A stretch of 64,000 nt of DNA from Eledone cirrhosa (lineage: Eukaryota), in the NCBI GenBank assembly GCA_964016885.1, contig OZ024740.1:224626001-224690000 (forward strand), given 5' to 3'. Both the position numbers and the translations under genes were made by a program. Under the pieces are notes generated by a model. It did no database searches. It was not told the DNA's origin and was given only the letters and a program-made list of their open reading frames with translations. The stretch's first letter is position 1. Each line of letters begins with the position of its first letter. Shown here piece after piece: positions 3,802 through 55,682 of this stretch.

Positions 3802-3856
3802 ATTCTGACGACTGAAGACAGACACAACATCTGTCTTCAAGAAACCACTGGTAAAT
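3802..3856 (+). ncRNA. Minimal type-I hammerhead ribozyme motif
   Basis: att-CTGACGA-c-tgaagacaga(cacaaca)tctgtcttca-a-GAAA-cc(act)gg-TA-aat: intact core, 10-bp stem II, short stems I and III. Confidence 0.75.
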
Positions 3857-3930
3857 TAAACAATTATCTTATGTTGTTTATTACATAACTAACAAGCTCT
3901 GTAGCTTTCTGACGGAAATACTTGATTTAC

Positions 3931-4024
3931 ACATATACATACATACATACATATATATATATATATATATATATATATATATATATATATATATATATAT
4001 ATATATATATATATATATATATAT
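3931..4024. repeat. (TA)n microsatellite
   Basis: Long pure TA run preceded by (CATA)n. Confidence 0.95.
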
Positions 4025-4062
4025 GAAATATAAGAATCAAAGAACTGTTCAAAACATTTTTG

Positions 4063-4109
4063 TGCTTACAGCTGTTTCCTCCAAACCGAGGTTTGGATTC
4101 TTCGGAGCA
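4063..4109 (-). ncRNA. Hammerhead ribozyme motif (U4C variant), left inverted copy
   Basis: Reverse complement of 5956-6002. Confidence 0.6.
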
Positions 4110-4504
4110 ATTTATTAATGAATGGACAGTTATATGACCTCCTTTTCACCCAAGAGACATACAGATACATATGCAAATATTGTGGGTCAACATTCATTAC
4201 AGCATTTAGAGTGGCAGCACACACTTCGAGATTACATTCATATTAAAAGGTACAATCAAGAATCAAAAATACAGGTTAAAATACAACATGAAAATAAGCG
4301 GTTATATAGTGCAAATGTTATATGTGTGGCAAGCACGTGCGTCTTGTTTATATAGTGTGGCAGAGAGTTACGTGTAGTAGAAGCACTTAGGTAGGTAAAC
4401 AAGAGTGTTAGGTTGGTTGATCTGGTGGCAAATTCTTTATATGATTGTTATAGTCTGTGTGTGGAGAAATGATATAAGCATTAAAAATAGTGCAAGCATT
4501 AAAA

Positions 4505-4595
4505 ATATTAGATCAGTTAGTGTTGGGTCTGTGGTATAAGGTGTGCCCCAGGGGCACACCTTATACCACAGACCCAACACTAACTGATCTAATAT
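4505..4595. repeat. Perfect 45-bp-arm palindrome with 1-nt spacer
   Basis: atattagatcagttagtgttgggtctgtggtataaggtgtgcccc-a-ggggcacaccttataccacagacccaacactaactgatctaatat. Confidence 0.95.
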
Positions 4596-5955
4596 AACAC
4601 AAACAACGACATCCCTCTGGAACCCTTCGCAGGGAGAATACCCATTTATACCTCTACGTTAGGTGTGACAACATCCACCCACTTGAACTGCACTACACCG
4701 CTCCATAGGTAATTTAAGCATGAATTGATTGGCTTGGTAGTGTTGTGCGGAGGAAGTGCCTTCCTTGGACGGATGAAAAACGATTTAATCTAGTAACACT
4801 GTTGAGCAGTTGGACCAGGACGCTGAGTGCAGAGAACGAATGTATTGCAACTGGCGTGCGGGTTGTACATATATGGATAATTTGATGGTCAGAGTGGGGT
4901 CATGAGGACTGTGGTTTGACCTCTGGCCGGCCCTGGTGATGATTATCTTTCGACATCCAATGTAGCAAGCGATGACCCAGAACTTACCAGAGATCATTGT
5001 GTGTTGAAGTGATTCTGCAATCACCGTGCCTGGTCCTATGAGTAGACTAAAACCACAGAGATCATTAATTTAGAATCCTCGCTCATCGTCTATAATATTC
5101 ATTTGTGGCACCCTACGATGGGGGTTAATTCACCATAATAATACGAACACCTTCAGCACAACTTAATAAACTACTCTATAGTTAAAACACTTTATGCTTT
5201 AGAAATTTTTTGGAAGTTGTGCATAACCATAGAAATTAGGGTCTATATTGAGACACATTTCAATAGCTAGGAATAGAAACCTCGGAGTTACCTCCCCTCA
5301 TGCATTAACTCCCCTTAGCCACACACACACTTCCGGGTAGTATTCAATGTCGATTCTCGAAACGTAACAGCCTCCTATATTGAACTAAAGAACATCAGAC
5401 TACGATTCTCTAACTGGATTGTCAAACGCTCAATATCGAATTGTCGTGGATTATGTGAGGGGCATATAATCTGAAAAATACACTCCCCTGACCATGAAAA
5501 TGTCGAAGTACATGAAATCCATATCATCCCTTCGCTGTGCATTTCCAATACTTTTAATATTTTTAATGCTTGCACTATTTTTAATGCTTATGTCATTTCT
5601 CCACACACAGACTATAACAATCATATAAAGAATTTGCCACCAGATCAACCAACCTAACACTCTTGTTTACCTACCTAAGTGCTTCTACTACACGTAACTC
5701 TCTGCCACACTATATAAACAAGACGCACGTGCTTGCCACACATATAACATTTGCACTATATAACCGCTTATTTTCATGTTGTATTTTAACCTGTATTTTT
5801 GATTCTTGATTGTACCTTTTAATATGAATGTAATCTCGAAATGTGTACTGCCACTCTAAATGCTGTAATGAATGTTGACCCACAATATTTGCATATGTAT
5901 CTGTATGTCTCTTGGGTGAAAAGGAGGTCATATAACTGTCCATTCATTAATAAAT

Positions 5956-6002
5956 TGCTCCGAAGAATCCAAACCTCGGTTTGGAGGAAACAGCTGTAAG
6001 CA
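5956..6002 (+). ncRNA. Minimal type-I hammerhead ribozyme motif (CCGAAGA core variant)
   Basis: tgct-CCGAAGA-a-tccaaacc(tc)ggtttgga-g-GAAA-c(agct)g-TA-agca; palindromic stem/loop III typical of dimer-active minimal HHRs. Confidence 0.65.
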
Positions 6003-6374
6003 CAAAAATGTTTTGAACAGTTCTTTGATTCTTATATTTCATATAACTGCTCTGTAAATCATCTGATGTTTTTACATTGAGCTACTTAACTTACTGGTAA
6101 TAAGGTAGTAATATATTACTGCCTACCACTATTTAGGGGTTGTATAAAAAAATACATATAACTGCAAAAAGTTTTTGTATTTACATAACCATAAATAGTA
6201 TAATTAATACTATATATATATATATATATATATATATATATATATATATATATATATATATATAAACGTTTGTATATGTATAATAAAGCCAAAACAATGC
6301 AGGTATGGACATAGAATAAAGAATGCAAATGCAAAAGATATTGTTGACAAATATATATATATATATATATATAT

Positions 6375-53228: not shown

Positions 53229-53529
53229 CATATGTACACACACACAAACATAACTACAAACAGTATAAGTTCAATCATACATATGATTGTGCATGTGTGT
53301 GTCAGTATATTGATGTGTGAATAAGGGCAGGAACACACTATATATGAGATCAGACATAACCTTAACATACCTAAATTTAATTAACATTGACTGTGAAATG
53401 TGGAAAACTCAAAGAAATATATCCCTTTCATCATCATATGTATTCACAGGACATCTAAATTTTAAACTCCCTCGTACACATACACCAATATTTAATATCT
53501 ATATGTAATTATAGCTGTCATTTATTATC

Positions 53530-54600
53530 ACTGTTTTATATTAACAATTAAATGATAATAGGAAGCAAAACTGTAAATTTCTTAAACTGGTATTCAAAAT
53601 TACTCCTCATCTATTTCAGAAAGCCTATTAATAGATATACTAAAATTTGTTTGCAAATAACTTCTCAGCTACCACTACTTCTGATATGGACATCATTTTA
53701 CACATTAGGAACACCAACCTATTTTATGATAATATCTTATGGATAAAAAACTTTCTGCAAGATTTTGGTGACAATGAGTGCTATTGTGATATTTTGTATT
53801 CTTAATTGGATACATAGCAAATTTCTATACATCATCAGGAGTTTGTGTAGAAACGATGGTTTGCTATTCTCAGAAATACCAATAAATGATAAACAAAGAA
53901 ATTTAAGAAAGAATTTCTTGATTTGTTTTCAGAGTTTATCTTTAAAATTACAGTTGAATCCACACTTATGATAGCCAGCAATCTTGATGGTACATTCACA
54001 ATTCTTCACATTCAGAAGCCACAATGAGTCATTATAAAACACTCAATACATATGTTAACAAATCTTGTTAAATATATTTCCCTTCATATTTCCAGTCTCT
54101 CTTTTACTGAAGTCACATTGGTTGATACTTCTTAGTACTGTAACAATGCCACATATCATAGCGAATTTATAAGATTTATAAAACGATGACATTTCACAAA
54201 CTCACAATAAAAGAAAAAAAATATTTGGAGTTATTTCCAATTCTCTGCAGCCAGCATGTCTCTACTTCTGTAGCCAAAATATGCTTTAAACTGCTGCAAA
54301 AGAATTTTCCTCAAGACCACAATTACAAGATTTTAATAAAAAATGTAAACATTTTCTCCTCTATGCCATCCAATTTTACAGAATTGTTGTCAAATATGAA
54401 CTGAATCTAAGTGTATAATTCCTTCTAATTGTATATGCTCAAATGAATGTTCATGTGAATGTAGATATACATCTAAAAGAATTGCTTTCTGTGTCTCTCT
54501 GAAAGTGAATACAGTGTCTAAATGTTACATTGAAGTAATTGTAAAATTATTTAAAGTAAGTTTAATCCACCACAAAGTTGCATACTGAAATCCCGTTAGA
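53530..54600 (+). pseudogene. Heavily degraded Penelope-like RT region
   Basis: Eroded motifs LCRNDGL (=LYRDDG), ISSLS and HVSTSVAKICFKLLQKNFPQDHNYK, collinear with the PLE at 59-1500. Confidence 0.55.
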
Positions 54601-54734
54601 ACTGACACTATTTTATCCTTATATATATATATAGAGAGAAAAGAAATAGGATTTCGCTTCAAGCATAGCTTTATACAATATGTATAAATATTTCGTATCT
54701 CCAAAGAAATACAGTTTTAGGAGGCAAGGGGGAC

Positions 54735-54780
54735 CACCATCTATGCCTTTCAGGCTTAACTGGCCTTCGTCAGGACGGTC
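54735..54780 (-). ncRNA. Hammerhead ribozyme copy (stem III mutated)
   Basis: Minus strand: accgtc-CTGACGA-aggc(cagttaa)gcct-GAAA-ggca-TA-gatggt. Confidence 0.7.
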
Positions 54781-55084
54781 CCTCCCACCGCTTGCGACTG
54801 CTAGACTAGAAGACAGGCGAGAATATATACTTTTCTCGTCTGTGTAATTGAGGTGATTAATCTCATTTGCATATGAAGCTGCATAAGTTGGCTCAACTTA
54901 TAATAAAAAAGAAATAGGATTTCGTTTCAAGCATAGCTTTATACAATATGTATAAATATTTCGTATCTCCAAAGAAATACAGTTTTAGGAAGTCGTAGCT
55001 ATGTAAACACCGGGGGGCTAACAGACGCGAAAAGTACATATTCTCGCCTGTCTTCTAGTCAAGCAGTCGCAAGCGGTGGGAGGG

Positions 55085-55128
55085 ACGGTCCTGACGAAGG
55101 CCAGTTAAGCCTGAAATGCATAGACGGT
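55085..55128 (+). ncRNA. Minimal type-I hammerhead ribozyme
   Basis: gtc-CTGACGA-aggc(cagttaa)gcct-GAAA-tgca-TA-gac. Confidence 0.85.
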
Positions 55129-55407
55129 TGTCCCCCTTGCTTTTGCTGGACATCACCAGAGGGTGTTAGCCCCCCAGTGTTTGCATAGCTACGGCTTCCT
55201 AATACTGTATTTCTTTGGAGATTCGAAATATTTATACATATTGCATAAAGCTATGCTTGAAGCGAAATCCTATTTCTTTTTTATTATAAGTTGAGCCAAC
55301 CTATGCAGCTTCATATGCAAATGAGATTAATCACCTCATTTACACTGACGAGAAAAGTATATATTCTCGCCTCTCTTCTAGCCCAGCAGTCGCAAGGGGT
55401 GGGAGGG

Positions 55408-55451
55408 ACCGTCCTGAAGAAGGCCAGGTAAGCCTGAAATGCATAGACGGT
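55408..55451 (+). ncRNA. Minimal type-I hammerhead ribozyme
   Basis: accgtc-CTGAAGA-aggc(caggtaa)gcct-GAAA-tgca-TA-gacggt; perfect 6-bp stem I. Confidence 0.88.
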
Positions 55452-55604
55452 TGTCCCCCTTGATTCTGCTGGACATCACCAGAGGGTGTTAGCCACCCCC
55501 CGGTGTTTGCATAGCTACGGCTTCCTAAAACTGTATTTCTTTGGAGATACGAAATATTTATACGCACACATATATATATATATATATAATAAAGAATACA
55601 ATAT

Positions 55605-55682
55605 AATTACCTCATTACCAGAGGTTTCCCGAATAAGACGAATACAAGAAACGTCCTCATTCGTTCGTCAGACAAGGCAATT
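55605..55682 (-). ncRNA. Type-I hammerhead ribozyme
   Basis: Minus strand: aattgccttgt-CTGACGA-a-cgaatgaggacg...cgtcttattcg-g-GAAA-cc(tct)gg-TA-atgaggtaatt; 11-bp stem I with G-U pairs. Confidence 0.85.

Follow-up and report, generated by a model that had tools for sequence, protein, structure and literature searches.

Penelope-like elements (PLEs) of the Hydra clade carry hammerhead ribozymes and insert into (TA)n (Craig et al. 2021, PMC8557442), and they stand among the closest described relatives of the thirteen hammerhead motifs considered here, which lie in a 64,000-nucleotide stretch of the Eledone cirrhosa genome (contig OZ024740.1 of assembly GCA_964016885.1, positions 224,626,001 to 224,690,000; the whole stretch is called the window, and positions are counted from its first letter). 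In these endonuclease-positive (EN+) elements a CxCX5C linker is present and CCHH is absent, insertions are inverted or partially tandem, and the hammerhead of the pseudo-long terminal repeat (pLTR) has a C...G stem III and frequently a UA cleavage site. Minimal PLE hammerheads were reported in 2014 in thousands per genome and in many divergent families, with palindromic stem III and predicted dimer cleavage, mostly solo or in inverted pairs 100-700 bp apart (Cervera and de la Pena 2014, PMC4209133). Metazoan non-LTR retrozymes are non-coding tandem units of 300-420 nt (Cervera and de la Pena 2020, PMC7229834), which have been proposed to be non-autonomous derivatives of PLE pLTRs (Li, Clavereau and Pollet 2026, preprint 10.64898/2026.07.22.740005). 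Finally, in PAc, a Poseidon PLE of Anolis, the hammerhead lies upstream of two internal start sites of the reverse transcriptase (RT) that set the copy ends, or tail (Frangieh et al. 2024, PMC11167929).

The window shares the Hydra-clade features listed above, but its motifs are detached from any open reading frame (ORF), have a longer stem II, and in two families, B and F, carry a U4C core. Like the minimal PLE hammerheads they fall into many divergent families and are mostly solo or in inverted pairs; no motif, however, is fully minimal in the sense of lacking stem III, and G10.1-C11.1 is not kept. The explanation that we consider quite probable is that the motifs near 3' ends abutting (TA)n are pLTR tails or protein-less dependents of Hydra-clade PLEs (families A, B and G, and probably F, D and H), accompanied by two families of tandem non-LTR retrozymes, C and E. 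A hammerhead layer as such is expected for a PLE-rich animal genome and is already published biology. Past the hammerhead, Hydra-type pLTRs hold a bulged hairpin, which is a new, testable cis-signal that likely tells the copying enzyme where to start.

The initial annotation had listed thirteen minimal hammerheads in seven or eight repeat families, and all thirteen type-I motifs are present at the positions it gave, which mark the low end of stem I. Given as C3 with its strand and H17, the motifs are 3805+/3853 in family A; 4105-/4067 and 5960+/5998 in B; 6676-/6646 in C; 8818+/8901 in D; 54773-/54742, 55091+/55122 and 55414+/55445 in E; 55671-/55616 in F; 16202-/16141, 16495+/16546 and 17011+/17057 in G; and 46766+/46839 in H. 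Each has the core CUGANGA/GAAA/UH with three helices and ends in helix I, five of them with the single substitution that had been claimed (U4C twice, C3U, GAAA to GAUA, and TGCA to GGCA in stem III). There are eight families, of which A and F are related (score 117, against a shuffle maximum of 78); the high E-F alignment score is an overlap artefact. The proximity to (TA)n also held up, with (TA)4 no more than 250 nt downstream in 12 of 13 motifs against a background of 22%, the match being internal to the repeat unit in families C and H. The label "minimal" suits C and E, which have a 4-nt stem III insert, and not the other six families, whose inserts of 6-8 nt are like those of Hydra pLTR hammerheads.

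The motif density in the window is far above that in shuffled sequence. A strict type-I descriptor finds 8 motifs against a mean of 0.125 and a maximum of 1 in 40 local dinucleotide shuffles, the real scores being 10.5-19.5 and the best shuffled score 8.0. With one mismatch allowed there are 13 matches, comprising 12 of the 13 motifs and a weak extra at 53610-, against a mean of 0.36 and a maximum of 2 in 25 shuffles (best shuffled score 11.0); the extra was dropped, its score of 5 being inside the shuffle range. The motif at 54773- has a perfect core and misses this descriptor solely through its GGCA stem III. No descriptor match is seen in the reversed window. Two features that the descriptor does not require recur as well, namely the UA cleavage site (13 of 13) and a stem III insert that is an exact palindrome in 8 of 13 motifs and a near-palindrome or 3-bp hairpin in the others.

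It could be argued that the motifs arose by chance in DNA rich in AT and in repeats. The descriptor was tuned after the motifs had been viewed, having been loosened once its initial version gave 4 and 8 of them; Rfam reports none of the motifs; and the isolated folds are not unusually stable (z of -0.5 to -1.9 for four motifs). However, the shuffles were run at identical settings, and the excess over them, the empty reversed window and the invariant UA site all speak against chance. The Rfam result, no hammerhead in the window among the matches listed (150 of 189) nor in a further 4, is uninformative because Rfam also finds none in 8 true Hydra loci that carry hammerheads; in giant squid it gives 235 hammerhead loci. 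A chance origin is therefore refuted for the motif set, at a residual probability that we consider negligible; family D alone (8818), the weakest of the thirteen, is less certain.

The initial annotation had further linked the motifs to PLE remnants in the window, and three such remnants are confirmed by a profile built from 9 long homologs. The largest is a broken, 5'-truncated ORF with RT and GIY-YIG regions at 59-1547 on the minus strand (profile E 6.5e-90 and 2.6e-53); a small decayed RT remnant lies at 25199-25430 (plus, E 1.3e-05), and a heavily decayed one at 53563-54407 (plus, best E 2e-04), tail to tail with the family E cluster. The 59-1547 remnant has a C-terminal GIY-YIG with a CxCX5C-type linker, here C-N-R-X5-C with the second Cys read as CGT (Arg), one base from Cys, and it lacks CCHH. 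CxCX5C is present in 90 of 150 homologs of the window PLE protein, and DKT in 8 of 9 long homologs (DKG in 0), the RT N-terminal region, in which the clade has its DKT and RWK motifs, being truncated in the window copy. The linker, the missing CCHH and the DKT of the homologs are defining marks of the Hydra clade (PMC8557442), and the assignment of the remnants, and with it the narrowing of the PLE link to this clade, is supported at the level of sequence. Pfam gives no family for the three PLE ORF pieces, a word-indexed search with the GIY-YIG piece gives no homolog whereas the full scan gives 4869, and a metagenome scan with the window protein alone returned 223 stretches, none of which was confirmed.

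Hydra-type loci from elsewhere provide the reference for the non-coding part, and for this we used the best 80 (L001-L080) of 541 confirmed metagenome loci. They contain 62 hammerheads in 52 of the 80 loci, 61 of them on the ORF strand, and 0 in 3 shuffles; the hammerheads stand about 70-370 nt past the protein match or 140-240 nt before it. U4 is kept in all 62 and the UA site in 51, and stem III has a C...G insert of 6-8 nt, a form shared with families A, B, D and F. The published hammerhead of octopus Hydra-1_Obim has a CC-NNN-GG stem III that matches A and F (supplement table of PMC8557442). The module order in these loci is hammerhead, hairpin 1, hairpin 2 and ATG. One locus, L080, holds two different Hydra-type pLTRs tail to tail (2272+ and 2567-), each with its own hairpin.

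The hairpin follows the hammerhead. GCUCY occurs 30-61 nt past the cleavage site in 41 of the 50 copies with enough flank (background 5%), and the hairpin that it opens, closed by GAGCAC, gives 75 matches on the ORF strand against 5 on the other and 1-4 in 5 shuffles. Its consensus, 20-35 nt long, is a GCUC/GAGC stem with a 2-nt U bulge, a covarying Y-R pair and a 3' ACU. At the position above the bulge, whose pairing the pattern does not set, 62 distinct hairpins have C-G in 36 cases, T-A in 24 and no pair in 2, and with alternative bulge sizes at most 10% of the hairpins pair there; these counts come from a script, as a MAFFT alignment left the 5' arms unaligned. Such covariation is expected of RNA structure, and the C-G/T-A split partly tracks hairpin 1 versus hairpin 2, so that there are fewer independent changes than apparent. 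The copies form 36 families, 28 with 100 nt of flank; among these 28 a hairpin is seen in 23, and in 12 it is doubled, the two lying about 60-70 nt apart with hairpin 2 a short distance ahead of the ATG. The hairpin also occurs in three published Hydra consensus sequences, and the start of Hydra-1_Ajap lies 2 nt ahead of it (PMC8557442). The main text of that paper uses neither "hairpin" nor "stem-loop", and no description of the hairpin is seen among the listings of the literature searches; the supplements of PMC11167929 and PMC4209133 and of two bioRxiv preprints may bear on whether it has already been drawn.

Copies of these elements tend to end just 5' of the hairpin. Of 10 comparisons within a family (at least 90% identity, 5 families), 9 show the copy ending 0-6 nt 5' of a hairpin, 7 times before the first and 2 times before the second, the tenth copy being 13 nt away; the nominal p of 2e-8 overstates the case, since the copies are related and were chosen for lacking the hairpin. 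The position differs from that in PAc, which starts inside an AC-rich stem-loop within the ORF, whereas the Hydra ends lie just 5' of two repeated leader hairpins. Our proposal is that the twice-repeated hairpin is an RT-positioning element with one cDNA start for each, and that the hammerhead-hairpin module licenses protein-less riders, including U4C lineages; we offer it tentatively, with a confidence that falls somewhat short of even. The main rival to this hairpin step is microhomology, in which an AU-rich linker anneals to the nicked (TA)n primer so that copies end 5' of the hairpins, the hairpins themselves having a promoter, translation or DNA-level role. Indeed, hairpin 1 is preceded by 8 nt that are mostly A/T, and several copy ends pass into TA runs, so that the exact junction is blurred. 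However, in L045 and L079 non-TA sequence follows the copy end, which still falls 5-6 nt before a hairpin, the pair above the bulge covaries as RNA structure would, and initiation by the Poseidon RT occurs without target homology (PMC11167929). On this balance we regard microhomology as somewhat unlikely.

In the window, the hairpin is seen at the expected place in three families. Family A has its hammerhead at 3797-3861 (plus, stem III CCACUGG), followed by a hairpin remnant at 3896-3905, and ends in (TA)n near 3930; two core-less inverted A copies lie at 46093-46259, the minus copy with a full hairpin at 46130-46152 and the plus copy ending 7 nt before it. Family B is an inverted insertion at 4026-6210 without an ORF, whose arms, 4026-4510 and 5555-6039, are 99.4% identical, which marks it as young, and meet at a junction with a 43-bp hairpin (4505-4595). 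Its two hammerheads, at 4063-4109 (minus) and 5956-6002 (plus, stem III CAGCUG), both have the U4C core; the plus copy is followed at 6049-6082 by a bulged hairpin of Hydra type whose minimum free energy (MFE) fold is the proposed one (z -2.55), and the 4063-4109 copy ends in (TA)n just 5' of the expected hairpin position. Family G forms a cluster at 16088-17116 of an inverted copy (C3 16202-, with C3U) and two direct copies (16495+, with GAUA, and 17011+); an ACUC/GAGU variant of the hairpin lies at 16611-16635 (plus), and the other two copies end 5 nt before its position. A 180-bp SINE-like (short interspersed element) repeat at 16221-16399 splits the inverted G copy and has a 95.6% identical partner at 53042-53221.

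Measured from the cleavage site, the hairpin stands at +42 in A, +50 in B and +64 in G, and the chance of its pattern is about 0.002 per 55-nt interval. The fold is as proposed in B, keeps the stem with a different upper register in A, and is not as proposed in G. The four hairpin-less copies of A, B and G all end 3-7 nt before the hairpin site (two aligned, two read by eye), and the three families insert into (TA)n. The shared bulged hairpin and end positions tie A, B and G to the Hydra machinery, and to this extent the suggested PLE link stands, although the remnants in the window itself adjoin no motif. An orphan pair of Hydra-type hairpins (46501- and 46414-, at 46397-46501) has kept no hammerhead.

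Whether these families are elements in their own right is a separate question. By profile search there is no Hydra ORF 70-370 nt before the hammerhead on the same strand for A, B or G, which makes them derivatives or truncated tails and not full elements. The Hydra-type motifs might then be only 5'-truncated tails (solo pLTRs) of autonomous elements, with C and E as the only separate non-coding elements. Most PLE copies are 5'-truncated, families D, F, G and H retain little upstream sequence, and the pLTR of the 59-1547 remnant would fall beyond the left end of the window and so beyond comparison. Against this, a Hydra-locus hammerhead lies about 70-370 nt past the protein, whereas B has 1.4 kb upstream with no frame longer than 63 aa and no profile match, and A has 2.2 kb without a profile match. 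Because B is a young inverted insertion with such an empty upstream region, it is likely non-autonomous, and we consider it unlikely that all the Hydra-type motifs are mere tails. The non-coding status claimed for all families is supported for B, C and E; D, F, G and H are not told from 5'-truncated tails.

The remaining Hydra-like families are represented by single hammerheads. Family D (8812-8907, plus) has a 65-nt stem II region and stem III CAAUUG, with a possible loop-less hairpin variant nearby at 8959-8971. Family H (46761-46844, plus) has stem III UCGUGCGG, and core-less inverted partial copies of it lie at about 46945-47125. Family F (55605-55682, minus) has stem III CCUCUGG and terminates 27 nt downstream in (TA)n, and other copies of it run upstream past 55760.

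Several observations weigh against the reading of the motifs as Hydra dependents carrying a positioning hairpin. The hairpin pattern is not enriched window-wide (9 against a mean of 4.4 and a maximum of 13), so that only its position is informative; no hairpin is seen for C, E, F or H, that of D is degenerate, and that of G differs from the MFE fold. The end test drops to 9 of 15 when looser pairs are admitted, and the 5' end of Hydra-1_Obim has, by eye, no clear GAGCAC 3' arm (PMC8557442). Some frequent changes in stem II of family F are not visibly compensatory (unlinked variants, among the matches listed). In the profile search of the window no PLE remnant lies upstream of, or adjoins, any motif on the same strand; since all the remnants are also broken, the suggestion that they mobilise the motifs was not borne out. 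The window also contains further RTs, and in Xenopus cleavage was seen for just 1 of 9 predicted retrozyme dimers (preprint 10.64898/2026.07.22.740005).

The notion that the RNAs are ribozyme-processed was likewise not borne out. None of the thirteen motifs is interrupted at its cleavage site, which is consistent with templates that were either uncleaved or re-ligated, and in the PLE reconstituted in vitro the RT needs RNA 3' of the start and hammerhead cleavage is dispensable (PMC11167929). The stem III self-duplexes, calculated at -5.2 to -13.1 kcal/mol against 0 to -0.6 for the hairpin form, together with the literature predict cleavage as dimers. The idea that 5' ends coincide with cleavage sites was ruled out, as three partial copies start 3-6 nt upstream. 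These copies, at 46222, 7067 and 47103 (n = 3), begin inside stem III, possibly where the RT stalled at a dimer helix. We also considered ORF N-termini downstream of the hammerheads, as in PAc, and rejected this for want of a profile match.

Families C and E form a separate class, and by sequence they are non-LTR-retrozyme-like. In C a 419-nt unit is present in 1.66 copies, with a (TA)n run on each side of the array (6375-7070, minus), C3 at 6676, H17 at 6646, stem III CUAG and an octamer at 6749-6756. E is built from a 323-nt unit in partial tandems that face head to head, again bounded by (TA)n runs (54635-55563), with hammerheads at C3 54773-, 55091+ and 55414+, stem III UGCA and octamers at 54865-54872 and 55315-55322. 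Two consecutive motifs are found in E (55091 and 55414), and C has one complete motif in the window. As in the retrozymes of PMC7229834, the units are non-coding and tandem, with a type-I hammerhead that has a stem II of 4 bp, a palindromic tetraloop in stem III and a lengthened stem I. They differ from these in their UA site, an A-U or U/U at the base of stem II, fewer than two full units per array, and a T-run/octamer/TATA-like module. In this module C (6376-6800, minus) and E (55265-55413) share, upstream of the hammerhead, a T-run, the octamer ATGCAAAT, TCA(G/C)C, and AAGTATATA, which stands 39-40 nt after the octamer; the C-E module alignment scores 64.5, a value reached by 0 of 500 shuffles. 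The module may be an external promoter, conceivably of the small nuclear RNA type as in newt satellite 2, although published papers did not confirm a promoter of this type there. A reversed octamer is also present at -73 in family B.

The families could instead spread as ribozyme-released circular RNAs copied by an RTE-like or L1/Tx1-like RT, the Hydra remnants merely co-occurring. Two RT ORFs, at 48564-49790 and 57429-60530, are much better preserved than the PLE remnants, and C and E fold as highly paired circles without a visible Hydra hairpin. However, the inverted and partial-tandem layouts, the TA targets and the absence of poly(A) tails match PLEs, and A, B and G carry the Hydra hairpin; we therefore consider such a route very unlikely. 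Of these other elements, the one at 57426-62115 (minus) comprises a near-intact 1034-aa RT/zf-RVT ORF and an upstream ORF, with decayed copies at 31-42 kb, and the RT ORF at 48564-49790 (plus) has a PHD-like insert.

Families E and F are high-copy. Sequence matching 55238-55760, which covers both, is found in 3951 contigs of X1, 3013 reads of X7, 16 of X5 and 8 of X6. Copies of family E repeatedly have their 3' end at 55284, within TA-rich sequence (28 contigs of X1, 1 in X6 and 244 reads of X7), and tandem joints are seen among its copies; the majority letters restore one of its stem I pairs (variants unlinked, among the matches listed). In family F, U4C makes up 47% of the depth in X1, 39% in X5, 61% in X6 and 19% in X7. 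The substitution is family-wide in F across three organisms and is present in both B copies, against 0 of 62 Hydra-locus hammerheads. U4C is a known natural variant with reduced activity in vitro (PMC3088659). Since C4-G5 forms a CpG, decay would give C4 to U4 and not the reverse, from which we infer a replicating C4 lineage. A family-wide U4C core suggests that spread needs no fast ribozyme.

Other repeats in the window include long near-perfect inverted repeats at 19915-20131 and 45908-46002, and a degenerate TTAGGG array of about 16 units at 13498-13595.

By analogy with PAc (PMC11167929), the Hydra RT/GIY-YIG protein would bind the bulged hairpin in the RNA and nick (TA)n DNA, and cDNA would start at hairpin 1 or 2, a few bases to its 5' side. 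Copying would then run through an uncleaved or re-ligated hammerhead until truncation or inversion, and any RNA keeping the hammerhead-hairpin module could be carried along by the Hydra protein. According to published work, the hammerheads themselves may cut weakly, via stem III dimers or with help from protein, trimming tandem transcripts; in C and E, cleavage would release monomers of 419 and 323 nt that may circularise.

The hammerhead layer mainly shows what Rfam-based annotation misses. The hairpin, in turn, is a 20-35-nt candidate RNA signal for the telomerase-related RT of PLEs and comes with the sharp prediction of two cDNA starts 0-6 nt upstream; if this is true, one start per hairpin explains the two-ended tail. 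It makes the choice of template and start by PLEs, and the pairing of retrozymes with PLEs, testable in a published in vitro assay, and it would serve as a sequence tag for assigning non-autonomous families to a PLE clade.

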